This document shows positions 17,601 through 44,689 of a stretch of 46,855 nucleotides of DNA, in pieces; the first letter of the stretch is position 1; each line of letters opens with the position of its first letter. The translations under genes and the position numbers were made by a program. Source of the stretch: Gemmatimonadota bacterium. GTDB lineage: Bacteria; Gemmatimonadota; Gemmatimonadetes; Palauibacterales; KS3-K002. Under the pieces are notes generated by a model that was not told the DNA's origin, did not search any database, and was given only the letters and a program-made list of their open reading frames with translations. The stretch spans positions 1 through 46,855 of the forward strand of contig JBDHJS010000029.1 of the NCBI GenBank assembly GCA_039586795.1. Direction: 5' to 3'.

Positions 17601-18314
17601 ATGGAGCGCAAGCATGGGTCGGACGGTGGCCAGACGGTTCTCGAGGTCGCCCGGGATGAAAGGATCGCCCTGCTGGTGAACAGGCCGCTCAACGCGTTCG
17701 TCAGCGGCCGCCTGCTGCGATTGGCAGACGCAGAAATCGAAGCCAGCGAGATTGACTTCGAGGAACAGCTCGGACGCGTCGCCGACCTGGAGTTCGCTTT
17801 CAGTACAGAAATCGCGCCGAAACTCCAGTCAGCCCCCGACTCGCTCGACCCTGGCGAGTACTTCCGTCTGTCCCAGCGACTGAAGGAGATCCAACCGGCA
17901 ATCACGGGCACCGCACACTGGGCACAGGTCGAGGCGCAGCTCAACATGACGGTCATGGCGGTGGTCAATGTCCTCAACCGTCAACTCGAAGGCGAGCTTC
18001 GCGATCGTTGGATCGAATGGCGCGACAGCTATCTGCCGGAACTGGAGGACCTGAGCCGAGCGCTGCGACGCCAGGCAGCCGAGAAAACCAGAGCGATCAA
18101 CGTAGCGTTGACGGGTGCCATCGACCCGTTGCTACCCGAGGAGCGTCGCGGGGAAAGCTTGTCGCGGAAGGCGCTATGGATCTTGATCAGCACACCAGGC
18201 GTGACGAGCGTGCTGAACGGTATGCGTCGGGTCGAGCAAGTGGACGACTCCGTCGGAGTCCTTGGTTGGTCAGCGCTGCAGTCGGTGCAGGAACTCTTTG
18301 AAGCAGTGAAATAG
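14700..18314 (+). CDS. Fusion: YyaL/SPATA20-type (DUF255 thioredoxin + alpha/alpha toroid) protein + aldo/keto reductase domain
   Basis: N-terminal part: [88 protein letters not shown]-terminal part: [62 protein letters not shown]. Confidence 0.9.
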
Positions 18315-21713: not shown

Positions 21714-23249
21714 ATGAGGCGATTGCGGCCTTCAATGCTGTGTCTGACTCTGGTTCTTGCCGCTTGCAAGGTCGGCCCCGACTACGTCGAGCCGGAGGTC
21801 GAGGTCACCGACGAATGGTATGCGTCGGTCGAGGACGAGATGTCCTCGGACGAACCGGACATCGAGAAGTGGTGGGAAAACCTCGCCGACACCACACTCA
21901 CCAACCTGATTAAAGAGTCCGAGCTGGCCAATCTGGACCTGCGCATCGCGGTGGCGCGGGTTGCCGAGGTGCGGGCGCTGCGCGGAATTGCCAAGGGCGA
22001 TCTTTTCCCCGACCTGGTCCTCTCGGGCGCCTACTCGCGCACCAAGATCAGCGAGAACAGCCCGCTGGGAGAGGCGATCCAAGGCGCCGGCAGAGAATCG
22101 GCTCCCGTCGATGTGTGGGAAACCACCGCCAGCTCGTTCTGGGAGATCGACCTGTTCGGACGGATCCGGCGTGGTGTCGAGGCGGCCACGGCCGAGTTCG
22201 AGGCGAGCATCGAGGACTATCGCGACGTCCTGGTGTCGCTCTACGCCGAAGTCGCGTTTGGCTATGTGCAGGTTCGCTCACTGCAACGGCGGCTGGACTA
22301 CGCCAACCAGAACGTCGCGGCGCAGCGCGAGAGCCTGGAGCTGACGCGCGACCGCTTTCAAGCCGGGCTGACTTCGGCGCTCGACGTGGCGCAAGCGGAA
22401 CAGAACCTGGCGCAGACCGAGGCGACGATCCCGGCGTTGGAGGCGAGGCTGAACGGTTCGCTCAACACCCTGGCGGTCCTACTCGGCAAGCAACCCGGCG
22501 CGGTCCACGAACGACTCGAGGTCGGCGAGGGGACGATACCCCGGGAACCAACTGACATCCTGGTCGGGGTCCCGGCGGATATTCTGCGGCGGCGACCGGA
22601 CGTGAGGGGCGCCGAGCGGCGGCTAGCCGCGCAAACCGCCCGCATCGGTGTAGCAACAGCCGATCTCTACCCCACCTTCTCGCTCTCCGGGTTCGTACAG
22701 GCCGTAGCCACAACGTTCACCGGCCAGTTCGAGGAGGGAAGTCTCGGATGGTCTATCATCCCGGGCTTCCGCTGGGACCTGTTCAAGGGCGGCAAGATCC
22801 GCAACAACATCCGCGCCGAGGAAGCTCGGACCCAACAGGCGCTCTACGGATATCGACAGACCATCCTGCTCGCCTTTGAAGAGGTCGAGACGGCCATGGT
22901 CGCCTACGACCGCGAACGAGTGCGTCGCGCACGCCTCGAAGAGGCGGCCAGCGCCAGCGAGCGAGCGGTTGAGCTTGTGCGCACGCAGTACGTCTCGGGC
23001 CTGACGAATTTCCAGAATCTCCTGGACACGCAGCGATCTCTCTTCCAGCAGCAGGACAGACTCGCGGCAAGTGAAGGTCAGGTGATCATCAACTTGATCG
23101 CGCTGAATCGCGCTCTGGGTGGCGGTTGGTCACTGGACGAGGAAGCGCCGGACCGAATGAGCAGTGCGGAAGACGGAGCCAGTGAGCAAGGCTCGACTGA
23201 CGACTCACAATCTCCGTCGCAAGAGAATGAAGATGAAGGGAACAGATAG
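21714..23249 (+). CDS. RND efflux outer-membrane lipoprotein (OprM/NodT/TolC family)
   Basis: AGGAGG RBS, lipobox LAAC-KVGPDY, WWE..D..L, NLDLRIA, WEIDLFGRIRR, LRRRPDVRGAERRL and RALGGGW. Confidence 0.95.
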   Translation: MRRLRPSMLCLTLVLAACKVGPDYVEPEVEVTDEWYASVEDEMSSDEPDIEKWWENLADTTLTNLIKESELANLDLRIAVARVAEVRALRGIAKGDLFPDLVLSGAYSRTKISENSPLGEAIQGAGRESAPVDVWETTASSFWEIDLFGRIRRGVEAATAEFEASIEDYRDVLVSLYAEVAFGYVQVRSLQRRLDYANQNVAAQRESLELTRDRFQAGLTSALDVAQAEQNLAQTEATIPALEARLNGSLNTLAVLLGKQPGAVHERLEVGEGTIPREPTDILVGVPADILRRRPDVRGAERRLAAQTARIGVATADLYPTFSLSGFVQAVATTFTGQFEEGSLGWSIIPGFRWDLFKGGKIRNNIRAEEARTQQALYGYRQTILLAFEEVETAMVAYDRERVRRARLEEAASASERAVELVRTQYVSGLTNFQNLLDTQRSLFQQQDRLAASEGQVIINLIALNRALGGGWSLDEEAPDRMSSAEDGASEQGSTDDSQSPSQENEDEGNR

Positions 23250-27621: not shown

Positions 27622-28575
27622 TCAGGCCCTCCTAATTATCGTCCCGGCTTCCCCCCTCGCCATCGCCGCAAGGTCAGCCAACGCCCCGATCGCCGCCCAG
27701 CGATGGGGGCTATCGGCGAAGGCACACGCCGCTTCGACCTTAGGGCCCATCGAACCCGCGGTGAAATCGTAGCCCGCCATCTCCTCCGGCGTCGCGTGGC
27801 GGATCAACCGGGCGTCGGGAGTCCCCCAATCCAGATAAACCCCGTCAACATCCGTCGCCATGATCAGGACATCTGCTTCGAGCTCCGTCGCCAGCAGCGC
27901 GCTCGCCCGGTCCTTGTCGATCACAACCTGGGCCCCCTCCAGCGTCCCATCCTCACGGTACATGGTGGGGATCCCCCCTCCCCCGGTGCAGATGACGATG
28001 GAGCCACGATCGAGCAGCCATCTAATAGGACGGATCTCGAACACACGCTTCGGTAGCGGCGAGGGGACGACGCGCCGCCAACCGTCGCCGTCTGGCGCGA
28101 TCGCCCAGCCGCGCTCAGCCGCAAGACGCTTCGCTTCATCTTCCGTGTACAGTGGTCCGATCGGCTTGGTGGGATTCTCGAACGCCGGGTCATTGCGGTC
28201 CACCTCGATCATCGTCAGGATCGTCGCAAACGGCTGCTCGAACGGAAGGAGATTGCCCAGCTCCTGCTCGATCATGTAGCCGATCATCCCCTCCGTCTGC
28301 GCGCCCAGAACATCCAAGGGATAGGGCTCGACCTGATCGAACGATGCCGCCTGCAGAGCTAGCAATCCGACCTGCGGACCATTGCCGTGCGTGATGGCGA
28401 GCTGATGCTCGAGGGCGATAGGGGCCAGCGCCTGCGCTGCGATCCGAACGTTCTCGCGCTGGTTCTCCGCCGTCATCGCCTCGCCACGACGCAAAAGCGC
28501 GTTGCCTCCCAGCGCCACGACGATCCTCATGCGGCCGCCCAGGTCAAGCTCATCGTAGGGATGCGCGTGCAACGT
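27622..28575 (-). CDS. arcC: Carbamate kinase
   Basis: [53 protein letters not shown] and [10 protein letters not shown]. Start uncertain (28590 GTG, 28575 or 28530 ATG). Confidence 0.95.
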
Positions 28576-28582
28576 CATACCG

Positions 28583-29584
28583 TCAGTCACCCAGCGTGGC
28601 GATCATGATCGCCTTGATGGAGTGCATGCGATTCTCGGCCTGGTCGAAGACGATCGAGTTCTTGGACTCGAACACGTCCTCGGTCATCTCCATTCCGTCC
28701 AGTCCGTACTTCTGAAAGATCTCTTCGCCGACGGAGGTCTCGCGGTTGTGGAACGCTGGTAGACAATGAAGCAGTCCCACGTTGGGCACGCCCGTCTTGG
28801 CAACGGCCTGGCTGTTGATCTGATACGGCCTGAGCAGTTCGATCCGCTCCGCCCACTTCTCCGCCGCCTCGCCCATGGAGACCCAAACGTCGGTGTACAG
28901 GAAGTCGGCGCCTTTCACACCCTCGTCAACATCTTCAGTGACCGTTATGCGAGCGCCCGTCTCTTCCGCCAGCTTCCGGCACCGCTCCACGAGGCCCGCC
29001 TCCGGCCACAACGACTCAGGACCGGCCAGCCGGACGTCCATCCCCAACTTGGCGCCACAAACGAGTAACGAGTTCGCCACGTTGTTTCGGGTGTCTCCCA
29101 AGTAGCAAAACGCGATCGCGCCCAGCTCCTTTCCACAGTGCTCCAGCATCGTCATGACGTCGGCGATCGCCTGGGTGGGGTGCCATTCGTCGGTCAGACC
29201 GTTCCAGACGGGAACGCCTGCGTAGGCGCCCAGCTCTTCAACTCGCTCCTGGCCGAAGCCTCTATACTCGATACCATCGTACATGCGACCGAGAACCCGG
29301 GCGGTGTCCTTCATCGATTCCTTGTGTCCGATCTGCGAACCGGTGGGTCCCAGGTAAGTCACGTGAGCGCCTTGGTCGTAGGCCGCGACCTCGAACGCGC
29401 AGCGCGTCCGTGTGGATGTCTTCTCGAAGATGAGCGCGATATTCTTCCCCTTGAGGCGCTGCTCCTCGGTTCCCGCATACTTCGCTGCCTTTACGGCCTC
29501 GGACAGCTTCAGCAGATGGCGAATTTCGGCCGGGCTGTAGTCTTCCAGCTTGAGGAAACTCCGCCCTCTGAGGTCGATCGTCAT
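28583..29584 (-). CDS. arcB: Ornithine carbamoyltransferase (catabolic type by context)
   Basis: AAGGAG RBS before ATG 29584; [46 protein letters not shown] and FDQAENR. Lies immediately upstream of arcC. Confidence 0.95.
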
Positions 29585-29702
29585 ACTGGCAAACTCCTTG
29601 TCGTCTATAGGTGCCACGGCAGCCCGAACTTAAGTGACATCCGGCTCGACGGGAAAGGGCCCTTCGCTTGTGCGGCACGGCGGAGAGCCTAGCTTGTGGC
29701 GC

Positions 29703-31110: not shown

Positions 31111-31139
31111 TTGCGGTGCAAGTCCAATGTTTCTATATT
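31111..31139 (+). promoter_or_regulatory. Putative sigma-70 promoter for the GGDEF-NTPase gene
   Basis: TTGCGG-N17-TATATT. Confidence 0.45.
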
Positions 31140-31283
31140 CTTAGCTCGGCCCTGGCCGTAGGAATCTGGTCCCCCCCAGATCTTCAAGCCCTCCCTCCTC
31201 GACGAACCGATAAAGTCCATTTGGGCTCGGTGGATTCGTGTTTCTGCACGATAGACCAGCTTGCCGGATGTGACGGTTACTGG

Positions 31284-34200
31284 ATGCAATACAGGGAACT
31301 CCTAGACTTACTCGCGCATGTGGGGAAAGACCCGTCGCGTCTCATCTTTGAAGATGAGCTGACGGGCATCCACAACCGCCGTTTCTTCCTGAGCTATCTG
31401 GAACACAAGATCCGCTGGGAGCGTGACGATGACTTTCCGCTCTCACTGCTGATGATCGACCTGGACCACTTCAAGGAAATCAACGACCGACACGGTCACG
31501 ACACCGGCGACCAGGCGCTGCTCTGGATGGCGACGGTCCTGAAGGAGGTGGGCGGCGATCAGGCGCTCGCCGTACGTTACGGTGGCGATGAGTTCATGCT
31601 CATGCTGCCCCAGGCGACGCGCAGCGACGCTCGAGAGATGGCAGACCGTCTGCTGCAGCGGACTCAGGACCGACCGTTCCGGCTGCGGGACGCCGATGTC
31701 AGCGTTCCGATGAGCCTTAGCATCGGTTTCGCCACGGCTCCACAAGACGCCACCAACGGCAGCGACTTATTCCAAGCTGCAGATACGGCCCTGTTTCACG
31801 CCAAGCACACGGGCAAGAACCAGGCATCCAGTTTCTCGGAGGTCGATCCGGAAAAGGTCTTCCCTAAGACGGCGCTGTACAGACTGAAAGCGACGGGGAT
31901 CGCGGGGCGTGAAGAGGAGTTGGCGGTGGTCTCCGAGGCCCTGGACAAGCTGGCCAGCGGCACTAGCCAGTTCCTGGTGGCCGAGGCGGCGCCGGGCATG
32001 GGTAAGACGACCTTCATCGAGGCGGTGCGCCGAAACCTTGTCGGTGACGACACCTTCTGTGTGGCACGAGTATCCGGCGACGCGCAGGAGGGTTACCGCC
32101 CCTACTACCTGACCGGGAGAATCCTCCTCAACCTACTGAGCCAGCGGGATGACCAGGGCGCCGGGATCATGGAGGGCGTAACCCGAGAGGAACTCGCGCA
32201 CTTGGCGCATGTTCTCCCGCAGTTGGCGGACGAGAATCTGGACGTCGCCGAGGTGGGTGATAGCGCTCGGCGTCAGAACATCTTCGCGACACTTGCGCAG
32301 GTCTTGCCTAAGGCCGCCGACTTCCGACCCCTCGTCCTCCTGGTCGACGACCTTCAGCTCGCCGACGAGGCTTCGCTTCTGCTGCTTCGCGTTCTCATGC
32401 AACGACCGGACATGCCCATCTTGGTCTGTGGGTCGTCGGCGGAGACGATGCGGTTCAGCGGCGAAGAAGAGGCATCTCCTCTGGAGCGATTCATCTCGCT
32501 ACGCGTCGACAACCTGGAGCTTCATCGCATCAAACTGAAGCCGCTCACCCCGGACGGGATACATGAGTATCTAAAGACCGTCTTCCCTCGGCTTCAGACA
32601 CCCGACGGTTTCGAAGAAGACCTCACGACCATTACGCAGGGCAATCCCCTGTTTCTCGGCGAGATCATCCGCAAGCTGGTCCACGACGGAAAGGTCGCGC
32701 TGGTGGGTCAGGAATGGGTGATCGAGCCGCTCGAGGCGGGCTATCTGCCACGATCCCTGGAAGAGATCGTAAAGCAGAAGATTGCGGCGCTTGATGAAGA
32801 GGAGCGTTCGCTACTCGAGCGGGCATCGACGATCGGCGAAGACATCTCGTTGAGTGCCCTGACGGGCAGCTCGGAGATGAACGAGAGTCGCGTGCAGGGG
32901 TTCCTGGACCGAGCTGAGACGCTAGGTCTGGTGAGTCTCGACTTCCAGGTGAACGACGAGGTGATGCGCTTCCTCGGCAAACGCGTGCTTGACATCACCT
33001 ACGGCGCTATGGAGCAAGACCGGCGCAAGGAAATGCACGCTCAGGTCGCGAACTATCAGGAAGGTCTGTACCAGAAACGACTGCTGCCTTCTGCATCACT
33101 GCTTGCCTACCACTTCAAGCGCGCAGAGAACCAGGAGAAAGCCAAGCGTTACGAGCAGGTCCAGCTGGGCGCCAACTACAGCGTCTTCGATGCGGATGAA
33201 GCCGCATCCTACACTGGCGAGGTCGTCGAAGTCGAGCCCGACGAGGTCGAGACCGAGAGCCGGCTCGATCCTGAGAGCATTCCACGAGTGCCCTTCGTCC
33301 TCCGCACGCTCATGTCAACCGTGCGCAACATCCAGCTCTATCCGCCGGAGAGCAAGTCGATCGCCGAGGCACTGCGCGACCTCCACGATGCGATCGACGC
33401 GATCCTGGATACGAACGAGCGACTCCACCTGTCGCAGGCTCAGCGGGCGCTGCTCGCCAACGGCCAGCGACTCGATGTGAGCCGCTACAGCATGCTGGCC
33501 CGATCGTTCATCGACCTGCTCACCAAGACGGAAATTCAGGGGATCATCTTCAAGCGCGGCGTGACCCGCGACCAGATTCGTGATCTGCTAAACGCGCTCG
33601 TGAACCTGAAGCTGGAAGCGATAAGTCCGGGGTTCTGGCGGGACTTCACGACGGAACACGGGCTCGATCGTATCGAGCTGCGTCAAGTGCGTTACTCGCG
33701 CCTACGGCGAAAGAAGGGGCGGGCGACGATCCGGCAGGCGGTCGCCGAGGAAGAGGAGCTGGGCCCGGAGGAGCTGGCCGCGATTCCGACGATCCTGCGA
33801 TTCCTCCAGGGCACGGCCCAAAACGCGAAACTATACCCGCTGGACAGCAAGCCGGTCTCCAAGTCCATCGAGCAACTGCGCGCGTCTCTGCAAGAGGTGC
33901 TGAGCCGGCACCCAACGCTGAGCCTGGCGCGGGCTGGAGACTCCCTCTTGGTAAACGGCGCGCGGATAGACACGACAGGGTTTGCACCACTGGCATCGAG
34001 CTCTGTCGAGTTCCTCGAGTCGGCTGGGCTCGACAGCATCACCTTCTCTTCCGGTTTGCCAATCAGCGAGTTGCTGGCGTTCATAGAGGCAATCCGCACG
34101 CCGGCGGAAGCCAGTCAGCAGCCTGATTTCTGGGAGCAGCTCGGCCAGGAGAAGGATCTCACTTCGATCAGCTTCAACCAGCGCCGGTACGTCGCCGGCA

Positions 34201-35531
34201 TGGTGCAGACTCTGCTCAGCGCCGTGGACGTCGAAATCGAGGAAGAGGATATCGACGAAGATGAAGCTGCGCGGTTTGCGGAACGGATGACAGAGGAACC
34301 GCTGGAGGCGCTGCGCGATTCCCTTCCACGGTTCGGCAAGGAGCTGCTGGTCAAGGGCGAGCACCGACTCCTCAAACAACTTTTGAGACGTCTGTTCGAC
34401 GACTTTGAGAACCAAACTCCGACGGAACGCGAGATGACCGTCCTCGCCTGCCACGCCCTGCTTGACGGTCTAATGCTCGGGCTGCAGCACAAGTTCACCG
34501 AGCTCGCGGTCAATTCGATTCTCGATGCGCTCTCGCACGAGACGGAGCCACGCGTGCTTCAGGAGATGGCCACCACCCTCTACGGGATGGCGGGATGCTG
34601 CCTCTATTTCTCCGACTACCAGACGGCAAGCCGCATCCTCAGCGAACTCAGGGCTCGCAAGCGGTCTATCGCGCACGCCGGCGACGGCAAGGGAAGCTTG
34701 GCTCGATTGCTAGACCGCCGACTCGACAATACAGCGATCGATCTGCTGAAGGATGACCTGAAGTCCGCAGCTGGCGACCGACAAGAGCGCGCCGCCCAGG
34801 TCATCGGCAATCTCGGTCGCAACAGCATTCCGCTCCTCATCGACGTCATCAAGGAAGAGAAGGACTTTCGTACGCGGCAAATCTCAGCCCGCCTGCTTTC
34901 CGAGCAAGGTCCCGAAGCCGGCGAACAGATTCGACGTGCCCTGGTGACAGAGGTCACTGTAGAGCAGCGCTTCCGGCTGCTCGAGATCATCGACACGGTG
35001 ACACGGAACCTGCGCGCCGAATTGATCTTCTGCTTCGGCGATAGCAGCGCCAAGATTCGCCGCGCCGCGTTCCGGCTGTTCGAGCGGCTACACCAGGATG
35101 ACCTCATCGAGACGATCTTGCCGATGGCGCGAGACTCTGACTCCGCCGTCGCAAAGGGTGCCATCCGCAGCATCGCCCACCTCCGCTCAGCGGCGGCAGT
35201 TGCCGCTCTAAGCAAGATCCTCGAAGAGACGGACCAGCCGCGCGTCGCTACGGCCTGCTGTCAGGCGCTAGGCGAGCTGCGCAGCCCCGACTGCATCGAG
35301 CCGCTCGCCATGGTACTGAGCAAGAAGAAGCTCTTCCGTAGGCGCTGGGATCCGCAGGTGCGGGTCACAGCAGCGATGGCTCTGCGACATATCGATCACC
35401 CGAAGGCCCGGGCGGCCCTGAAGCGCTTCGGTGGCGATCAGGAGGTCAGCGTCAGGCAACTGGCTAGACCGGACCCGCCGATAGATTTCGACGACACGCC
35501 GGTACCCGAGACCGAGGCGGACGAGTCGTAA
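31284..35531 (+). CDS. Diguanylate cyclase (GGDEF) - STAND/AAA_16 NTPase - duplicated 165-aa domain - HEAT-repeat protein
   Basis: GGDEF part: DELTGIHNRR, DLDHFKEINDRHGHDTGD, RYGGDEF, ADTALFHAK. NTPase part: IAGREEEL, EAAPGMGKTT (Walker A), LLVDDLQLAD (Walker B), TQGNPLFLGE, PRSLEEIVKQKIAAL, LAYHFKRA. Then two LYP domains and C-terminal HEAT repeats. Start ATG 31284 assumed. Confidence 0.88.
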   Translation: MQYRELLDLLAHVGKDPSRLIFEDELTGIHNRRFFLSYLEHKIRWERDDDFPLSLLMIDLDHFKEINDRHGHDTGDQALLWMATVLKEVGGDQALAVRYGGDEFMLMLPQATRSDAREMADRLLQRTQDRPFRLRDADVSVPMSLSIGFATAPQDATNGSDLFQAADTALFHAKHTGKNQASSFSEVDPEKVFPKTALYRLKATGIAGREEELAVVSEALDKLASGTSQFLVAEAAPGMGKTTFIEAVRRNLVGDDTFCVARVSGDAQEGYRPYYLTGRILLNLLSQRDDQGAGIMEGVTREELAHLAHVLPQLADENLDVAEVGDSARRQNIFATLAQVLPKAADFRPLVLLVDDLQLADEASLLLLRVLMQRPDMPILVCGSSAETMRFSGEEEASPLERFISLRVDNLELHRIKLKPLTPDGIHEYLKTVFPRLQTPDGFEEDLTTITQGNPLFLGEIIRKLVHDGKVALVGQEWVIEPLEAGYLPRSLEEIVKQKIAALDEEERSLLERASTIGEDISLSALTGSSEMNESRVQGFLDRAETLGLVSLDFQVNDEVMRFLGKRVLDITYGAMEQDRRKEMHAQVANYQEGLYQKRLLPSASLLAYHFKRAENQEKAKRYEQVQLGANYSVFDADEAASYTGEVVEVEPDEVETESRLDPESIPRVPFVLRTLMSTVRNIQLYPPESKSIAEALRDLHDAIDAILDTNERLHLSQAQRALLANGQRLDVSRYSMLARSFIDLLTKTEIQGIIFKRGVTRDQIRDLLNALVNLKLEAISPGFWRDFTTEHGLDRIELRQVRYSRLRRKKGRATIRQAVAEEEELGPEELAAIPTILRFLQGTAQNAKLYPLDSKPVSKSIEQLRASLQEVLSRHPTLSLARAGDSLLVNGARIDTTGFAPLASSSVEFLESAGLDSITFSSGLPISELLAFIEAIRTPAEASQQPDFWEQLGQEKDLTSISFNQRRYVAGMVQTLLSAVDVEIEEEDIDEDEAARFAERMTEEPLEALRDSLPRFGKELLVKGEHRLLKQLLRRLFDDFENQTPTEREMTVLACHALLDGLMLGLQHKFTELAVNSILDALSHETEPRVLQEMATTLYGMAGCCLYFSDYQTASRILSELRARKRSIAHAGDGKGSLARLLDRRLDNTAIDLLKDDLKSAAGDRQERAAQVIGNLGRNSIPLLIDVIKEEKDFRTRQISARLLSEQGPEAGEQIRRALVTEVTVEQRFRLLEIIDTVTRNLRAELIFCFGDSSAKIRRAAFRLFERLHQDDLIETILPMARDSDSAVAKGAIRSIAHLRSAAAVAALSKILEETDQPRVATACCQALGELRSPDCIEPLAMVLSKKKLFRRRWDPQVRVTAAMALRHIDHPKARAALKRFGGDQEVSVRQLARPDPPIDFDDTPVPETEADES

Positions 35532-36888: not shown

Positions 36889-38286
36889 TCAGCTGCGCAG
36901 CCGGGCGATGATCCGGTCCAGCAGGGTAGTCGGGAACGTCCCATCGCGCTCCAAGGTCTCCCGGTGGCGGGTCAAAGCGTCGGCCACTTCGGGGAAGCTC
37001 CCGGGTACGGGCGCGATACTGCCGCCGGGGGCTGTCACCTGTGCGGCCGAGGTGCGGCGCAACAGATCGTCGAGGTCGCGAGCGTCGCGGCCATGGATCA
37101 TGGCGAGCGCCGCTCCAGCCATCAGCAGGTGAGGCAATGCCGAGCCGTCGGGGAGACGGAACTCGATGGTAGGAACGGTCAATTCGCGGCCTGCCTCATC
37201 GGTCGAGGTTATGGGAAGGCGGATCAGAGCGTTGCGATCGTACTCGCCCCAGAAAATGCCGCTCGGCGCTTCCTTCGCCTGGCTCACTCGGATGAACGAG
37301 TCCGGCGATCGGTTGCCAAACGCCATCAGCGCCTCTCCCATTTCCACCAGGCCGCCGATCAGCCAGCGCGCCGCATCGGATAGCCGTCCATCGCCATCAC
37401 GGATCGGCATGTTGCTTCCGTTCGATACCGGGGCGAAGTGGAAGTGCAGTCCGTTACCGGCATGCCCCTGAAGCATCACCGGGTCCGTATTACAGCGCAT
37501 GCCTCTCCTGTGCGCCAGGTTGCGGAGCACCCACTGGGTCAACAAGATGCCGTCGGCCGCGGTGGGCAACGGCGCCAGACCAAGCTCGATCTCGTGTTGC
37601 TCCCATATGACGCCTTCGGTCTCACGTGCCTCGATATATCCGACCTCGCTATGACCGTATTTGACGGGCACACCGATGTCGTGCAGTAAAGCGAGCGCCT
37701 CGCGTCGAAGCTCCTCACCGAACACGAACGGCGCCGTCGCATGATAGCCGCGATCGTCGGCGCCGTAGATGTCCGTCTCGTCCCACCGCTTGCCGAGGAA
37801 GTACTCCACTTCGCCCAGCGCCCACAGCTCGATCCCCGTTTCGTTGCTCAGTCTTTCGTAGGCGCGTCGGACTATGGTATCCGGCGACTGCGGTAGCGGC
37901 GTACCATCGCGACCGGAGTGACTGCACATCAAGACCAGCGACGTTCGCGGCGCGAACGGGTCGATGAATGCGCTCTCGAGGCGCGGTCGTAAGACAATGT
38001 CGGATGCGTCGGTTGGGATGCCGGCGTTGGGGAACAGGCTCGAACCGTCTGCCCGTTCACCCCCTTGAATGATGTCCTTCAGGTGTTCAACGCTGCGCGG
38101 CACGAAGTCGAGCGTCTTCAGCCACCCGTCTCCGCCCACGTGCATCAGGTTGATCAGCACGACCCTTCCGTCGCTGAACAGGCCCGCGAGGTCATCAACG
38201 CTCCATTCGGAGCGCGGTTTCTTCAGTGCATTCTCCAGGCTGTTGCCGAAGGAGATCGGTGTGCTGTTTGCTGGCTTCTCGTTCAT
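36889..38286 (-). CDS. glnA: Glutamine synthetase family protein (GSI-like)
   Basis: GERADGSSLF, GEVEYF, KYGHSEVG, EQHEIE, AGNGLHFH, SFIR..EAP, DRNALIR and IEFRLPD carry the canonical metal and substrate residues. ATG 38286 overlaps the gatD stop (ATGA). Confidence 0.9.
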   Translation of the reverse strand: MNEKPANSTPISFGNSLENALKKPRSEWSVDDLAGLFSDGRVVLINLMHVGGDGWLKTLDFVPRSVEHLKDIIQGGERADGSSLFPNAGIPTDASDIVLRPRLESAFIDPFAPRTSLVLMCSHSGRDGTPLPQSPDTIVRRAYERLSNETGIELWALGEVEYFLGKRWDETDIYGADDRGYHATAPFVFGEELRREALALLHDIGVPVKYGHSEVGYIEARETEGVIWEQHEIELGLAPLPTAADGILLTQWVLRNLAHRRGMRCNTDPVMLQGHAGNGLHFHFAPVSNGSNMPIRDGDGRLSDAARWLIGGLVEMGEALMAFGNRSPDSFIRVSQAKEAPSGIFWGEYDRNALIRLPITSTDEAGRELTVPTIEFRLPDGSALPHLLMAGAALAMIHGRDARDLDDLLRRTSAAQVTAPGGSIAPVPGSFPEVADALTRHRETLERDGTFPTTLLDRIIARLRS

Positions 38287-39677
38287 CGCCACATCTTCTC
38301 TAAGAGCGCCTGAACTTCAGGCACACCACCTTGAAATACTAGATAGCCGTCGTGCGGTTCGCGCTCAGTCATCTCTCCCGCGACGGTCCTCGTCATCAGC
38401 TCGCGCACGGCTTCCGGATCGTCAGGGTGAAGACCTAGCGCCCAACCCAGTTTGATGTACGCGACCTCGGGGAGCATGTTGGCAAGGGGAACAACACCAA
38501 GTTGCAGGATCTCTCTCCCCGTCTCATAGACATGCATTTGAACAAATCCCCAAAGCGTCTGCAACGTCATGTACAGCTGCACGCCTGCCTCATGAGCACG
38601 TTCCAGCGCCGGATAGATCTTGCGGTTGACGTGACCGAGCCCCGTGCCGGCGATGACGATCCCCTTATAGCCTTTCTCGACGAATGCATCGACCACGTCC
38701 GGGTGCATGCCGGGGTAGTAATAGGTCAAAGTCACTCGCTCTTCAAATGCCGTCTGAACGAGTACGTCGCGATCCCGACGACGTACGGTGTAATCATCCT
38801 TGAGTGTTGTAATCCTCCCCTGATCCACCATGGCTAACGGTATGTCGCCCAGCGTCCGGAAAGTGCTGCGGTACGACGAATGCATCTTTCGCACGCGAGT
38901 CCCGCGGTGCAGCAGATTATACTGATCCGATGTCGGCCCGAACATGCAGACCATAACTTCGGCAATCGGCCCGCGCGCCGCGGTCCAGGTCGCATTGATC
39001 AGGTTCTGCGCCGCATCCGATGAAGGCCGGTCTGAAGAGCGCTGGCTGCCCACCATCACGATCGGGACGGGTGACCGCTGCACCATGAAGCTCAGAGCGG
39101 CGGCCGTATGGTGCATGGTGTCGGTACCATGCCCAACCACCACTCCGTCGTACCCCTGCCCGACCGCCTCACCTATCTTCTCTGCCAGGATCATATACTG
39201 CTCGGGTCCCATGTTCTCCGAAAAGACGCCAAACAGCTTCTCTGTTTCCAGATTGCAGATGTCCGCCAGCTCCGGGACAGAACCGTAGAGTTCTCCAGGG
39301 CTGAAGGCCGGGATGACCGCTCCAGTCCGATAGTCGAGACGCGAAGCGATAGTACCGCCGGTCCCGAAGAGCTTGACACTCGGTTTGGCCGGATCGGAAG
39401 GGAACGCTTTCTCTGGTATCTTGTAGTGTGCTTCTCGGTATCCGATGCTGTTTAGCGACAGCACCGTATCATGACGCAGGCCGACGTTGTACCCACTACT
39501 CAGTTTGAGCACCAGGTGATTCTCGTCGCTGGTTTCCGACCGCGGTAGAACCAACCCCTCGAAGTCACCGCGCGTCGTTTGGGCCTTCACCTCGCTCCAA
39601 ACCGTGATGCCGAACCGTTTCATGAGTTCGACACACGGGCCGCGATACCCTTTGTATTTATCATCGGACTGGTTCAT
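38283..39677 (-). CDS. gatD: Glu-tRNA(Gln) amidotransferase subunit D
   Basis: GatD-specific N-domain (EGLVLPRSE..HLVLKLSSGYNVG) plus asparaginase-fold motifs GTGGTIASRLDYRTGAV, HGTDTM, GSQRSSDRPSSD, HRGTRVRKMHSS, GTGLGH and MLPEVAYIKL. ATG 39677 overlaps the gatE stop (ATGA). Confidence 0.95.
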   Translation of the reverse strand: MNQSDDKYKGYRGPCVELMKRFGITVWSEVKAQTTRGDFEGLVLPRSETSDENHLVLKLSSGYNVGLRHDTVLSLNSIGYREAHYKIPEKAFPSDPAKPSVKLFGTGGTIASRLDYRTGAVIPAFSPGELYGSVPELADICNLETEKLFGVFSENMGPEQYMILAEKIGEAVGQGYDGVVVGHGTDTMHHTAAALSFMVQRSPVPIVMVGSQRSSDRPSSDAAQNLINATWTAARGPIAEVMVCMFGPTSDQYNLLHRGTRVRKMHSSYRSTFRTLGDIPLAMVDQGRITTLKDDYTVRRRDRDVLVQTAFEERVTLTYYYPGMHPDVVDAFVEKGYKGIVIAGTGLGHVNRKIYPALERAHEAGVQLYMTLQTLWGFVQMHVYETGREILQLGVVPLANMLPEVAYIKLGWALGLHPDDPEAVRELMTRTVAGEMTEREPHDGYLVFQGGVPEVQALLEKMWR

Positions 39678-41749
39678 GGCACGACCTTGATATCGACGCG
39701 CTGCAGCAGCTCTTTCAGTCGCTCGCGTGCGAGCGCTGGGTCGACCCGGCCCACGAAACGTCTCATGATCTCGCCCATGCCCCATCGCAGCACCGACTCC
39801 GCCGGTTTCCCAGCCAACTGCGCGGCGTTCGCCGACACTTCGTCCAGCGCGCGATCGAGCTGTTGCGCATCGTCGTTCTGCCGCTCGTAGCGGGCCAGCA
39901 GCTTTGCCACCGGCGTGCCATCTTCCTCGATGATATCGTCCAGCGCACGTTCCATGGCCTCGAGGCGAATCGCTCCATCTTCCACACGGCGGACCAGCAT
40001 GGATATGCGTTCTGTATCCGGCAGGCTATCGACGGTGTTCTTGCGCAGATGATAAGGAATCCGCTTCTCGAACGCTGCCGCGACGCGACGCGCCGTAGCG
40101 CCGCGTGCCGGCCGCAAGTCGTCAAACAACTCTGCCCAGGGCGCGGAGGCGAGGCGGCGGGCCGCCGCTTCAGTTAGGCCCATTTCCATGTAACGCGCTT
40201 CCCGGGCCCACGGTGAGTCGGGGAGTTCATTCCCCGTCGCGATGATCAACTCATCCGAGATCGGCAGCGGCGGCGTGTCGGTATCCGGATACATCCGGTC
40301 CGGGCCTGGCAGGATACGTTCGAAACCGTTCGTACCATCCGCGAACGCCTGGCGTGTCTCAGAGGGTACTCCTATCAGGGCATCCGCCGCGCGAATGAAC
40401 AGCTCTCGCACAGCCGTGGCCGCATCGCGCTCCGGCATCCAAACGACGACCATCGCATCTCCGCTGTCGGCTCCTAGCTGCTTCTGCAACGCTCGCCACT
40501 GCCGCTGATTGAGGCCATAATCCTCGAGGTCGGAGTGGATCATGAATGGCCTGTGAACCGGGCAGGCGATCACTCTGACTCGATCCGCGAATTCGCGCGC
40601 CATCGTGACACCGGGCTGAGTTCGATGCGCAAGCAACCCCGCGAAGCCCGGTAGCCGAACCGCAATCACCTTGTCGCCGCGATCCAGTGCGTCATGGATC
40701 GGCGCATAGTCAGAAGGACCTAGTTTCGCACCGGCATCGACGACATGAGGCGACGCCTCCCACGGTAGCTCGGCGTCGGGACAAGAAAGCATTTCCTGCG
40801 TGACGCCGCGTCGTTGTAGTTCGGCCCGCACACGCAGAAGATTCAGCTGTCGGTACGCCTCGATGTGCACCAAGCGGGGCAGTCGCCGGTGGTTATCCAC
40901 TCCCTTGAGCTCGACACGCCGGCCGCCCGCGACTGACACGTTCACGTCCTGGCGCGCCGCACCAGGACCACGGCGTACCTTCCCCGTCACGTGCGCGACA
41001 CGAGCCAGCAGTCGTCCGGCGGCCTGCACCTCGAGCGGAGTGAGCAGCTCGGGTTCGGTCACCGCCTCGGTCAACGGCATGCCAAGTCGATCAGTCCGGA
41101 ACGTGATCGAGTGCCCGATATCGGATATCTCCCGGCAGGAATCCTCTTCGAGCGAGAGTTGCCGAATGCTGAGCTCGCGATTCACGCCCAGGTCAGGTTC
41201 GCGGAACGGAATCGAGCCGGTCAAACCCACCATGGCCGTGCGTTGAAAACCGGTGGGGATCGAGCCGTCCAGGTACTGCTTGCGCATCACGTGGAGCTCA
41301 GACACAAGATTGAGATTCAACAGCTGGGCGATCTCGATAGCAACCTGCACCGCCTCGGGGTCGATTACGAACGGCGGCGTGTCGTCCATCTCGTAGGTGC
41401 AGACCGATCCACGTTCCAGCTGGTAAATAATTTCCTTGTTGGTCTTGAACTCCATCAGCGCGGTCCCGTCATACTCTCCCATCTCGCTGAGGGTGGGACG
41501 CATGTGGCGCAAGACCTCAGCATCGTAGCTGTTCACGTAGCGACCGGCCGGGCAGCGACAGAAGAGCTTGGTACGCGTAATCAGCTGCTGATGGACTTCG
41601 AGCCCAGACATGAAACCCAGGACCTGGTAATCCGCAGCCGACAGCTCGCCGAATTCCTTATTGGGAAAGTCCAGTACGGGATCGCGCCGGGGGTTGTGGT
41701 CAGCAGGCGGGCGAATCCCGAATTGGGCAGGTGCTGGATCTTCGCTCAT
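39674..41749 (-). CDS. gatE: Glu-tRNA(Gln) amidotransferase subunit E
   Basis: GLEVHQQL..KLFCRCP, RPTLSEMGEYD, MRKQYLDGSIPTGFQRT, LEEDSCR, DRLGMPLTE, KVRRGPGAARQDVNVS, RVELKGV, an AspRS-like (GAD) insertion, GVPSETR..LPGPDRMYPDTD and a Yqey-like tail MGEIM..GRVD. 691 aa from ATG 41749. Confidence 0.95.
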   Translation of the reverse strand: MSEDPAPAQFGIRPPADHNPRRDPVLDFPNKEFGELSAADYQVLGFMSGLEVHQQLITRTKLFCRCPAGRYVNSYDAEVLRHMRPTLSEMGEYDGTALMEFKTNKEIIYQLERGSVCTYEMDDTPPFVIDPEAVQVAIEIAQLLNLNLVSELHVMRKQYLDGSIPTGFQRTAMVGLTGSIPFREPDLGVNRELSIRQLSLEEDSCREISDIGHSITFRTDRLGMPLTEAVTEPELLTPLEVQAAGRLLARVAHVTGKVRRGPGAARQDVNVSVAGGRRVELKGVDNHRRLPRLVHIEAYRQLNLLRVRAELQRRGVTQEMLSCPDAELPWEASPHVVDAGAKLGPSDYAPIHDALDRGDKVIAVRLPGFAGLLAHRTQPGVTMAREFADRVRVIACPVHRPFMIHSDLEDYGLNQRQWRALQKQLGADSGDAMVVVWMPERDAATAVRELFIRAADALIGVPSETRQAFADGTNGFERILPGPDRMYPDTDTPPLPISDELIIATGNELPDSPWAREARYMEMGLTEAAARRLASAPWAELFDDLRPARGATARRVAAAFEKRIPYHLRKNTVDSLPDTERISMLVRRVEDGAIRLEAMERALDDIIEEDGTPVAKLLARYERQNDDAQQLDRALDEVSANAAQLAGKPAESVLRWGMGEIMRRFVGRVDPALARERLKELLQRVDIKVVP

Positions 41750-41857: not shown

Positions 41858-43030
41858 ATGAGTCATACTTCTAGAAGCTTTCAATTCACGGTTTCCCATG
41901 TCCTACTACCGGTTCTGCTCGCCGTCCTGTGGAGCCAACCCGTCCCAAAAGAACTCAGCCACGCTTCGCCTGCTGGCAACGACGCGATTGTCGCTGACTC
42001 GCTGAACGATGGCCCGCACGTCTACTGGCAGGGTCCGTCCCAAGCCATCGTCTTCTACCTGTGCGACGGGTCCGTGGTCGAGAAGCGCTTCGAGGCGCGC
42101 GACACTTTGCGCTTCAACGGCTTCTGCGGTGACGAGACATGGGAGTACGAGATCCCGGCACGGCCGCCGAGGCTCGAGCCGTATCTCTATGATGATGTGT
42201 CGAAGATCATCGCGATCAGCGACATCCACGGGGAATACGACCCATTCGTTGACTTCCTGAAAGTCGCGGGGGTGGTCGATAGCGAGCTCAACTGGACGTG
42301 GGGTGACGGGCACCTGGTGATCGACGGCGATGTCTTCGATCGCGGCGACAAAGTCACCGAGTGCCTGTGGCTCATCTATCGCCTGGAACAGGAGGCGCGT
42401 CGAGCGGGTGGGCGCGTGCACTTCTTGCTCGGCAATCACGAGACGATGGTGGTGCGCGGTGACCTGCGCTACGTGAACAAGAAGTACGCGGACGGCATCG
42501 TGCGACGGGCGCGGATCAACTACGCCGACCTGTACGGCCCGGATATGGAGCTGGGTCGCTGGCTGCGCACGCGGAACACCGTCATCAAACTCAACGACGT
42601 GTTGTTCGTGCACGGCGGCATCCCGCCGCGCTTGGCGGAGCTGGGCGTCGACCTGGCCGATGTGAATAAGCTGGCCGGGGAGACCCTGGACCTACGGGAA
42701 TACGAGATCGCCTTCAACGATCATATCAAGAAGTACTACGGACACAGCGACGAAGGTCCGTTCTGGTATAGGGGCTACCACCACGCCGAGGAAGGACGCT
42801 ACCCGCAAGCGACGACGGCGGACGTGGATGCCATTCTGGGCGAGTATGGAGCTACTGCAATCGTGGTCGGCCACTCCGGCGTCGACCAGGTGATCAGCCT
42901 GTACGATGGTAGGATCTACGCTATCGACATACCTCTCCCAGCGCTCGGCTCCTTTCAAGGCCTCTTATGGCAAGACGGCCGTTTTCATCGGGTGACAGGG
43001 GAGGGCTTGCGGGAGCCTTTGTGGGAATAG
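41858..43030 (+). CDS. Secreted calcineurin-like metallophosphoesterase (Shewanella-like phosphatase group)
   Basis: Hydrophobic N-terminus; SDIHG, GDVFDRG, LGNHE, FVHGG, GPFWYRGY, VGHS and YAID. Confidence 0.88.
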   Translation: MSHTSRSFQFTVSHVLLPVLLAVLWSQPVPKELSHASPAGNDAIVADSLNDGPHVYWQGPSQAIVFYLCDGSVVEKRFEARDTLRFNGFCGDETWEYEIPARPPRLEPYLYDDVSKIIAISDIHGEYDPFVDFLKVAGVVDSELNWTWGDGHLVIDGDVFDRGDKVTECLWLIYRLEQEARRAGGRVHFLLGNHETMVVRGDLRYVNKKYADGIVRRARINYADLYGPDMELGRWLRTRNTVIKLNDVLFVHGGIPPRLAELGVDLADVNKLAGETLDLREYEIAFNDHIKKYYGHSDEGPFWYRGYHHAEEGRYPQATTADVDAILGEYGATAIVVGHSGVDQVISLYDGRIYAIDIPLPALGSFQGLLWQDGRFHRVTGEGLREPLWE

Positions 43031-43042
43031 GGCACCACAGGA

Positions 43043-44689
43043 TCACGGAGGCGGCTGCGCCGAGTACTGGATAACTGGGATCTCCCTTCTCGGGAAAACG
43101 AAACCCGTGCCGAGGGTAACCACCCACCGGTCACCCGTTACGTCATCGCCAAACCGATAGCCAACGTCGAGTCGCCCGGTGCGCGGCACGGTGCTGAGCG
43201 CCGAACCCAGCCTCAACCCGAGGCCTATGTTCCCTCCCCCGCGACGCTCCTGCTCCGGATACCATGCGCCGCCGTAGTCGAAGAAGGCCGCGAACCCGAC
43301 ACCGACCAGGTTGAACAACGCGTCCCAGACGAACCACCGATGCTCGGCTGAGATCCACAGCTCGCGAGTCCCGACGAACGAGTGGGCCTCCCAGCTCCGG
43401 GGCGGCGCGTTGAAACCCAATGTGAATTCTTCACCTGGCCGCACGTTGTCCAGTGCGCCAACCTGGATTTGCGCCATGATCGCATGCCGCTGAGCGGGCT
43501 TCCAGCCGAATGCGAAGTTCCCGACCACACGCCCCGAGTCGAGTCCCGCGTCAGTGAGCACTCCACTGAGGTCCAAGGCACCCCAGACGAATGCGGATCC
43601 CACATTTACCGTGGTCGATGCGCTGATGCCAGGCCCCACTCCGGTCCGTTCGTACCCCCATACCTCCGGCGCCAGGTTGACCGTGAGCCGGATCGTCGTG
43701 CTCAGGTCGAGGTCTTCCGATCCGAATCCGTTGAAGCGACGGATCGTAATGAAGTCGGCCCGGCTGTATTCTCCGTACACACCGATGACCGCGGACAGGC
43801 TGTCCGGCAACAGCATGGCCGTGTCCGCCTCCAGCTGATACGCCTCGTCGCGTACGCCGGCGAGGCCTACCCAACGAAGGTACTTGTTGGTCTGCGCGAT
43901 CGTAGCGGCACCACCGACCAGGTTGTGCTGCATCGCCTCGCGATGGTAGCTGACCGTGTCGAGGACGCCGTCCTCGGTGCGGAAGAACTGCAGAATGCGC
44001 TGATCGGCGACCATGCCGTCGTACTGAAGCGAGGCACGCCAATTGTAGGCACGAAATGGGATTCCAGTGATCCAGTTGCCGCTCTTTCCATCCGACATCC
44101 CGGCGTAGTTGCCAGCGGCATCGATCTCAGAACCGAGAAGCCTTTGGAAGTTGGCCGAGAGATTTAGGCCGTCGCGATCGACCTGTTTGTCGTACGCGAT
44201 GTAAACCTGGTTGCCGGTGCCCAGCAGATTGATCTCATTGATGCCGATGGTGCCTGTCCACGTACCGTCCGACTGCACCTGGAACTTGAACTTCGGCTTC
44301 GTGCTCCAACCATCCTGCGTGTGAACGACGACAGCGAACCTGTCATCGATGCGCGTCGTGTCGAAGTCGATCTCTCTGAAAATCGCACGCTGCCGCAGAA
44401 TGCGCTCGCTCTCAACGACCTTGGCCGAATCGAAAGGCTCGCCTTGCTTGAACAGCAGGTTATTGCGGACCCACCAGTCCTGCGTCGTGACGTGCAGGCT
44501 GTTCATGATGCGGAAGATGCCGCTGGTGGCCGCCTGCTCGGCGTTGAACACGTTGTCGCGGATGATGACGATCGTGTCGACGATGAGCGGCTGGGGATCG
44601 GTCGCCTGGGCATGCAGGTTGGCGGCTCCGCCCGATGCGGCCGACAGTAGGAATGCTAGCGCTAGTCTGGAGGTTCGAATGGTGTTCAA
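43043..44689 (-). CDS. Outer-membrane protein, POTRA + beta-barrel (BamA/TamA-like)
   Basis: TTG start and signal peptide ..LHAQ; POTRA-like MNSLHVTT..LLFKQGEPFD..ESERILR, EINLLGTG, and barrel end AAFFDYGGAW..GLGLRLG..RLDVGY. Confidence 0.8.
   Translation of the reverse strand: MNTIRTSRLALAFLLSAASGGAANLHAQATDPQPLIVDTIVIIRDNVFNAEQAATSGIFRIMNSLHVTTQDWWVRNNLLFKQGEPFDSAKVVESERILRQRAIFREIDFDTTRIDDRFAVVVHTQDGWSTKPKFKFQVQSDGTWTGTIGINEINLLGTGNQVYIAYDKQVDRDGLNLSANFQRLLGSEIDAAGNYAGMSDGKSGNWITGIPFRAYNWRASLQYDGMVADQRILQFFRTEDGVLDTVSYHREAMQHNLVGGAATIAQTNKYLRWVGLAGVRDEAYQLEADTAMLLPDSLSAVIGVYGEYSRADFITIRRFNGFGSEDLDLSTTIRLTVNLAPEVWGYERTGVGPGISASTTVNVGSAFVWGALDLSGVLTDAGLDSGRVVGNFAFGWKPAQRHAIMAQIQVGALDNVRPGEEFTLGFNAPPRSWEAHSFVGTRELWISAEHRWFVWDALFNLVGVGFAAFFDYGGAWYPEQERRGGGNIGLGLRLGSALSTVPRTGRLDVGYRFGDDVTGDRWVVTLGTGFVFPRREIPVIQYSAQPPP

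Follow-up and report, generated by a model that had tools for sequence, protein, structure and literature searches.

How a diderm bacterium came to possess both subunits of an amidotransferase regarded as archaeal, and what it might use them for, is the question raised by a locus in the genome of a Gemmatimonadota bacterium (assembly GCA_039586795.1). The window, meaning the whole 46,855-nucleotide stretch of contig JBDHJS010000029.1 that was analyzed, encodes on its minus strand GatD and GatE, the two subunits of the Glu-tRNA(Gln) amidotransferase GatDE. This enzyme is called archaeal in PMC2330236, PMC2943598, PMC3333875, PMC9499178, and PMC2811023; reviews of 2008 and 2022 confine it to archaea, a restriction on which an evolutionary scenario depends (PMC2330236, PMC9499178), and PMC9976931 mentions GatDE a single time and gives no distribution. 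A 2014 survey (PMC4206432) knew of no bacterium with both routes to Gln-tRNA(Gln). No paper describing bacterial GatDE was found among titles and abstract openings, a coverage in which subscription journals are mostly missing. The trees support placing the window pair in a large GatDE clade that appears to span many bacterial phyla and to be of inter-domain origin, and there is roughly an even chance that, next to glutaminyl-tRNA synthetase (GlnRS), it serves as an accessory Glu-tRNA(Gln) amidotransferase, intact, long resident, and relaxed in how it reads the tRNA's first base pair.

The identity of the two genes, read in a preliminary description from the letters of the DNA, was upheld by profile comparison of GatE with GatB and of GatD with AnsA. 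The features concerned are the following:

39674–41749, minus strand: gatE, the subunit for the kinase and amidation steps, which carries a GAD insertion and a YqeY-like tail
40418–40699, minus strand: GAD (AspRS-like) insertion of GatE, residues 351–444, located by PF02938 and by alignment to 2D6F and 1ZQ1
40895–40981, minus strand: GatE residues 257–285, two loops assigned to a putative acceptor-stem pocket, located by GatB alignment and PMC2811023
38283–39677, minus strand: gatD, glutaminase/asparaginase subunit with GatD_N domain, in ATGA overlap with the gatE stop
36889–38286, minus strand: divergent second glutamine-synthetase-like gene (glnA-like; PF00120, 130.7 bits), in ATGA overlap with the gatD stop

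GatE comprises 691 residues from an ATG at 41749 and scores 492.5 bits against NF003107 (cut-off 456) and 415.5 bits against TIGR00134 (cut-off 319.55), but falls under the cut-off of every GatB model, the top score being 156.7 against 338. Its Pfam domains are GatB_N, GAD, and GatB_Yqey (the PF02637 tail). The GAD insertion reaches 23.3 bits in PF02938 (E 7.6e-5), marginally under the cut-off of 23.4, and aligns along its whole length with the solved GatEs 2D6F and 1ZQ1, in agreement with the AspRS-like insertion first described. Among solved structures the top matches are 1ZQ1_C (E 8.5e-91) and 2D6F_C (2.9e-86), with GatB at only 4e-22. The signature motif of the protein is RKQYLDGSIPTGFQRT, and its His53, Glu201, and Glu228 align to the metal ligands His15, Glu157, and Glu184 of M. 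thermautotrophicus GatE, which are named essential in PMC2330236. GatD, with 464 residues from an ATG at 39677, carries the GatD_N domain, exceeds the cut-offs of TIGR02153 (497.7 bits against 324) and NF003217 (491.5 against 310), is likewise accepted by the wider model of the type I asparaginase subfamily (377.6 bits), and has the two archaeal GatDE structures as its top solved matches. Its glutaminase residues, the nucleophile Thr109 together with Thr185, Asp186, and Lys264, are intact; among the 76 loci showing gatD, Thr109 occurs in 75 and Thr185 and Asp186 in 73, with no alternative letter and with Lys264 outside the count. As far as sequence can establish, the window genes are thus genuine GatE and GatD with all the catalytic residues that were checked, and the models, domains, and best structural matches together rule out misassignment as GatB or AnsA. 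GatE is full length with tail, at about 630–720 residues, in most loci; a tail-less form was considered and ruled out, the low BLAST coverage reflecting tails that are diverged but present. The window GatE likewise has its YqeY-like tail, which lacks the GXXAXGX motif. Two irregular sequences are probably sequencing errors, namely a 969-residue protein fusing GatE and GatD domains (P0046) and a locus with frameshifts in gatE and gatD alike (L022).

A chimeric join with archaeal DNA was looked for across the locus and none was found. The pair is native and under purifying selection, because its flanks recur in relatives, dN/dS lies between 0.05 and 0.16, and contigs bridge its junctions. The window flanks stand beside gatED in G172, G176, G178, G161, and G183; dN/dS from two relatives, with dS near saturation, is 0.10 and 0.16 for gatE and 0.05 and 0.07 for gatD, GatD being the more conserved protein; and contigs of runs X3, X4, and X2 span the upstream, gatE/gatD, and gatD/glnA-like junctions (32 of 510 pieces), one of which runs may itself be the source sample. 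The guanine-plus-cytosine (GC) content is even along the window (0.59–0.65), and the source genome has a completeness of 97.8% and a contamination of 0.17%. At third codon positions (GC3), gatD (0.68) and gatE (0.72) lie slightly under eight of the nine other window genes measured (0.71–0.82). Leaving aside the entry of the window itself, the top 120 among 8000 scored homologues are 62–81% identical, and those named by organism are Gemmatimonadota, which indicates the phylum of the host and, with the TolC-type protein listed below, bears out the bacterial host originally deduced. The flanks and this marker are as follows:

41858–43030, plus strand: divergent metallophosphoesterase, a flank recurring near the locus in relatives
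31116–35531, plus strand: GGDEF-AAA-HEAT protein of 1471 residues, a flank recurring near the locus in family relatives
21714–23249, plus strand: TolC/NodT-type outer-membrane efflux protein (TIGR01845, 383.5 against a cut-off of 210.05), a diderm bacterial marker

Of the two outer-membrane proteins initially reported, the TolC-like one accordingly stands, whereas the BamA-like one is a weak, partial match of 36.7 bits against a cut-off of 297.15 and is not BamA proper.

In a FastTree phylogeny of 154 rows, the window falls within a 74-row clade (support 1.0) that contains every bacterial locus and lies beside a Heimdallarchaeota protein; of ten deep clade members looked up, two are named by organism, and these are bacteria. 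In IQ-TREE, hand-picked sets of 73, 58, and 54 rows, unrooted and with SH-aLRT support only (the latter two under a mixture model), give 100 to this clade and 99 to its union with the Heimdall group against other archaea, so that Heimdall-group Asgard GatE is the closest archaeal branch in all three runs, the outcome of the comparison with archaeal sequences that had been proposed. Forcing the named Asgard rows together is rejected at p 0.02 under a single-matrix model, for a group chosen after inspection of the tree; rooting with two GatB sequences yields a root support of only 0.6. The core grouping of a 32-row GatD tree matches that of GatE. The Heimdall-group proteins (such as P0162 and P0301, so named in NCBI records) have RPTLSE[LM]G.YD, RKQYLDGSIP, and YPDTD in common with the bacterial clade but, unlike it, retain KG[VI]Q and G[LI]GTIRQD; in their loci gatD is divergent upstream of gatE, and their GatE is only about 37–38% identical to that of the window. 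The clade is not purely bacterial, for it includes a Thermoplasmata-labelled protein and loci beside an archaeal primase, and in its archaeal members gatD is placed divergently, just as it is in the Heimdall-like loci. An ancient transfer from a Heimdall-type donor, with later spread among bacteria, would fit these patterns best.

Among at least 598 pattern matches in genome contigs, at least 591 encode a relative, and the 80 loci kept carry labels of bacteria from many phyla. The preliminary description had offered inter-domain transfer or an unrecognised bacterial clade as explanations; a clade of inter-domain origin is what the trees point to, but it is not unrecognised, since NCBI and JGI already name its proteins GatE (as do the labels of many of the best 120 homologues), just as the same description had anticipated of automated annotation. 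The gap is in the literature, not in the databases. A metagenome scan with one Heimdall protein as query gave no match, and an alignment-based scan gave the metagenome loci. Among them is an archaeal group with bacterial-clade GatDE (L148–L169) whose GatD is 62–68% identical to that of the window; gatD is divergent upstream, a tRNA-Gln lies directly 3' of gatE in three loci, glnA is nearby in six, and an A1/A72 mismatch is seen in the tRNA of L154. Another gatE-gatD group, set apart on a long branch and marked by the motif RKQYLDGSITT (L159, L165–L220), sits among Asgard-type rows, and in seven of its loci a glutamine synthetase (GS) of the window's divergent subfamily lies upstream of gatE. 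Two gatED loci of G172 (L118 and L120) have 90% identical DNA, one of them interrupted by a 100-N gap, which may be duplication or strain mixing.

The genome outside the window was checked for the synthetases and for gatCAB, as had been suggested. It encodes an E. coli-like GlnRS (TIGR00440, 731 bits against a cut-off of 425.8) on a different contig from gatED, as well as two full-length glutamyl-tRNA synthetases (GluRSs; contigs C23 and C36), an asparaginyl-tRNA synthetase (AsnRS), and an aspartyl-tRNA synthetase (AspRS), all above cut-off; both GluRSs are of bacterial type, passing gltX_bact and failing gltX_arch. The GlnRS keeps its Gln pocket (SLCTLEF and Gln256), Cys-Thr-x-Glu-Phe being found in 23 of 26 other GlnRSs and the Cys being invariant in the 27-row alignment, which on sequence rules out a Glu-loading precursor posing as GlnRS. 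The AspRS motif RRRDLGG is of the tRNA(Asp)-specific type, unlike the RRRDHGG of the Asp/Asn ligase 4WJ3, and several AsnB-type genes and a canonical-scoring GlnA are also encoded. Paired GluRS genes (C23 and C36; L003 and L004) are common in the order, independently of GatDE; five genomes of the same order have two GluRSs and no amidotransferase match, leaving the idea of the second GluRS as a dedicated GatDE partner unsupported. GatB and GatC were not found in the host genome, and no GatA scored above cut-off. In G161 and G172, about 3.7 kb with gatA and gatB lie between genes that in the host (contig C96 of G000, 44242–44339, a helicase-like gene and its neighbor) are only 97 bases apart, with no N, inside a 145-kb contig, so that an assembly gap is ruled out and gatCAB has truly been deleted, leaving GatDE as the sole amidotransferase in the host genome. 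One tRNA-Gln was found (UUG, C24:68136–68206), with U1-A72 in place of the archaeal A1-U72; a CUG isoacceptor was not found in the 107-contig assembly. The one tRNA-Asn is also U1-A72, and the host tRNA-Glu genes have longer D-loops than tRNA-Gln.

A survey of 160 other genomes of the phylum, each at least 92% complete, detected GatE in 11 (confirmed by a second test), 5 of them with GatB. GlnRS occurs in 74 of the 160, namely in 10 of the 11 with GatE (including G061, where it is partial and under cut-off) and in 64 of the 149 without; excluding the unpublished G048, G148, and G088, the latter figure becomes 63 of 146. Within family f3, GlnRS is present in 6 of 7 GatE-bearing genomes and 13 of 73 others. 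The Fisher p values of 0.003 (phylum) and 0.0005 (family f3) overstate the association because related genomes are not independent. Across phyla, GlnRS was found in 45 of 50 GatE-bearing genomes (43 above cut-off), GatB in 25, and AsnRS in 42, in a set drawn from the 80 loci for phylum spread, with completeness not given and no matched baseline; the two genomes without GlnRS and GatB also lack GluRS and are thus incomplete. In the host's own family of 24 genomes, GatE was found in 8, each of which also has a GatB match, and GlnRS in all 9 that are at least 90% complete, whereas neither GatE nor GatB was matched in any of the 13 genomes of genus g2. In G175 (one contig) and G180 the flanking genes are kept at the syntenic site with gatED absent between them. 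GatDE therefore accompanies GlnRS and can be lost, and it looks like an extra route beside GlnRS, not a replacement. The third bacterial route that had been envisaged is not borne out in the sense of one displacing GlnRS or GatCAB, given the canonical GlnRS of the host and the near-restriction of GatE to genomes where GlnRS is found.

Since gatE/gatD and gatD/glnA-like both join through ATGA overlaps, the unit consists of three genes. The glnA-like protein scores 151 bits against TIGR00653 (cut-off 429), and solved GS sequences line up with it at the motifs DGSS, E-x-E, G-x-H, EAP, and IE-x-R. The order gatE-gatD-glnA-like is found in 6 family genomes, and a GS-like gene lies 3' of gatD in 6 of the 8 GatE-bearing family genomes, as well as occurring in 9 others without gatE. 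Of the 91 loci of the first set, 76 show gatD, every time downstream of gatE and on its strand, and in 13 of the remaining 15 the sequence ends within 439 bases of the gatE match.

In GatB, the first base pair sits between the turn before beta11 and the beta12-alpha3 loop (PMC2811023), and the corresponding pocket loops of the window GatE would be residues 259–262 and 282–286. The protein reads GPGAARQD where archaea have G[LI]GTIRQD, and GTIRQD is mostly replaced by GA[AT]R[QE]D across the clade. At the position of M. thermautotrophicus Gln240, 95% of the 78 non-clade rows have Gln, clade members have Pro, Ser, or Asp, and the window has Asp285. This Gln may contact A1-U72 directly. Archaeal GatDE reads A1-U72 and is poor on bacterial Glu-tRNA(Gln) (PMC2330236, PMC2943598).

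In the accessory role, one of the two bacterial GluRSs would leave some Glu on tRNA(Gln), which GatE would bind through its cradle and YqeY-like tail and whose glutamyl group it would phosphorylate; GatD would free ammonia from Gln or Asn, and GatE would then form Gln-tRNA(Gln). Binding, kinase, and glutaminase steps follow family knowledge, with the residues present, and the three-step chemistry with Gln or Asn as amide donor is described in PMC2330236. The co-translated GS-like enzyme may resupply Gln, the altered loops may loosen the archaeal A1-U72 requirement such that the host U1-A72 tRNA is accepted, and tRNA(Glu) may be excluded through its longer D-loop. The GAD insertion, together with the discriminating-type AspRS motif, points to Glu and not Asp as the amino acid. 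The gain would lie in repairing mischarged tRNA and in a reserve route for times when GlnRS is limited by free Gln, with the pair non-essential. Several observations weigh against such a role. A GS gene lies within the flanks of only 4 of the 91 first-set loci (15 of 80 metagenome loci have one). Each host GluRS carries an Arg where the E. coli enzyme has Arg350, as discriminating enzymes do, and so does the M. tuberculosis GluRS, which is presumed here to be non-discriminating; Arg350 is assumed to be equivalent to Arg358 of T. thermophilus GluRS. This Arg has been tied to tRNA discrimination (PMC2978374). Where GatB accompanies GatE, in half of the multi-phylum genomes and all eight of the family, a repair role would be redundant, and the near-absence of GatE from GlnRS-less genomes is not predicted. 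Finally, archaeal clade members without Gln240 (L158, L164) sit beside A1-U72 tRNA-Gln genes, so that adaptation to U1-A72 does not simply explain its loss. A relaxed first-pair readout would fit both cases.

That near-absence would be explained by a physical partnership, in which GatDE binds GlnRS, channels tRNA(Gln), and amidates any Glu loaded by GlnRS, both perhaps obtained from a Heimdall-type or stem-eukaryote donor. This is unlikely; its starting point is that archaeal GatDE docks on archaeal-type GluRS and that the only bacterial structural counterpart of the latter is GlnRS. Archaeal GatDE:GluRS binding is independent of tRNA (PMC2943598), GlnRS has the archaeal-GluRS type of beta-barrel and reached bacteria by transfer (PMC2978374), and the closest archaeal branch is indeed Heimdall-group GatE; glnS lies in the flanks of 4 of the 91 loci and, in G050 and G051, directly 3' of gatD in a co-oriented gatE-gatD-glnS arrangement. 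However, the host glnS is on a separate contig and glnS is unlinked in most loci, the host GlnRS is ordinary with its Gln pocket intact, no GlnRS-like gene is near three Heimdall-like loci, and GatE is missing from 64 of the 74 GlnRS-bearing phylum genomes. A fuller version, whose Heimdall-type Asgard or stem-eukaryote donor had GatDE with an early GlnRS and whose bacterial GatDE survives as GlnRS partner in a transitional indirect-to-direct state, is rather improbable. Much the same holds for a non-decoding role, be it a tRNA-gated glutaminase/asparaginase or an amidation on a different carrier, as part of nitrogen handling together with the GS-like gene: the patchy distribution, the dispensability of the pair, the greater conservation of GatD, the recurrent GS neighbors, and the altered acceptor-stem loops would suit it, but the whole tRNA-binding architecture is retained, most loci keep a full-length GatE with tail, tRNA-Gln lies directly 3' of gatE in three archaeal loci of the same clade, and no alternative-substrate gene recurs in neighbor clustering of the 91 loci.

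Broadened specificity, by which GatDE would amidate Asp-tRNA(Asn), alone or additionally, in place of the lost GatCAB, has a small probability. The tail motif GxxAxG, tied to rejection of Asp-tRNA(Asn) in PMC2811023, occurs in 1 of 74 clade rows against 19 of 78 others, the host tRNA-Asn shares U1-A72, and GatB was not found in 25 of the 50 multi-phylum GatE genomes. This motif is nevertheless weak even among archaeal rows, AsnRS accompanies GatE in most genomes and, with several AsnB-type genes, is present in the host, the AspRS is of the tRNA(Asp)-specific type, and in archaea AspRS is kept from binding by the GAD insertion (PMC2943598). That these bacteria make Gln-tRNA(Gln) mainly or solely through GatDE is very unlikely: although GatDE is the only amidotransferase in a genome with two GluRSs, and in G140 (95% complete) GatE and GluRS were found without GlnRS or GatB, the host GlnRS is intact, both G140 congeners have GlnRS, G214 and G224 miss GluRS too, and the five genomes of the same order mentioned above combine two GluRSs with GlnRS. 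An artefact or relic, whether archaeal DNA that is chimeric or mis-binned or a decaying gene pair, can hardly be credited; the slightly low GC3 and the losses in relatives would accord with it, but flat GC, low contamination, close relatives among the best 120 homologues, conserved flanks, bridged junctions in three runs, and strong purifying selection all contradict it.

Compared with the archaeal enzymes of M. thermautotrophicus (2D6F) and P. abyssi (1ZQ1), the window pair is alike in having two subunits that align over their full length, a GAD insertion, a GatD_N domain, a metal site of His/Glu/Glu, and Thr and Thr-Lys-Asp as glutaminase residues. It differs in its bacterial host with GlnRS, bacterial-type GluRSs, and a U1-A72 tRNA-Gln, in the Asp at the Gln240 position, GAARQD for GTIRQD, and the RKQYLDGSIP signature, and in its gatE-gatD-glnA-like operon, dispensable in relatives. 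Bacterial GatCAB has a GatB core homologous to GatE, and its readout uses the first base pair together with the D-loop (PMC2811023); unlike it, the window GatE lies under all GatB cut-offs, in a host that has lost gatCAB. In Bdellovibrio, Deinococcus, and Thermus (AsnRS with GatCAB), an amidotransferase is likewise retained beside a direct synthetase (PMC4206432), but there GatCAB supplies Asn, whereas here the enzyme is GatDE and the amino acid is likely Gln. At the sequence level, the clade contradicts the archaea-only statement, and it offers candidates against the statement that no bacterium has both routes to Gln-tRNA(Gln). One soluble enzyme pair makes testable both the first-base-pair readout of amidotransferases, A1-U72 versus U1-A72, and amidotransferase function where GlnRS exists, and the in-place deletion of gatCAB makes the host genome a clean test case.

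Around the operon, neighbor clustering of the 91 loci showed only the gatE and gatD frames as clusters present in more than 10 loci, and the promoter and terminator scan yielded signals not above chance. No odd tRNA private to the operon surroundings was found; a relaxed ARAGORN search of the 91 loci returned three matches, which lie within the gatE match, at it, or immediately behind it. As to mobile carriage, the plasmid search gave no bacterial plasmid match and only one haloarchaeal replicon, and no viral contig was found. The sole RNA run tied to the stretch contains 6% of its sequence words. Elsewhere in the window, an ornithine carbamoyltransferase gene adjoins a carbamate kinase gene (27622–29617), with no arginine deiminase among the window open reading frames scanned; a 1204-residue fusion joins a DUF255 thioredoxin-like protein to an aldo/keto reductase domain (14700–18314); and an ImuB-like Y-family polymerase homologue lies close to the contig end (44871–46448).

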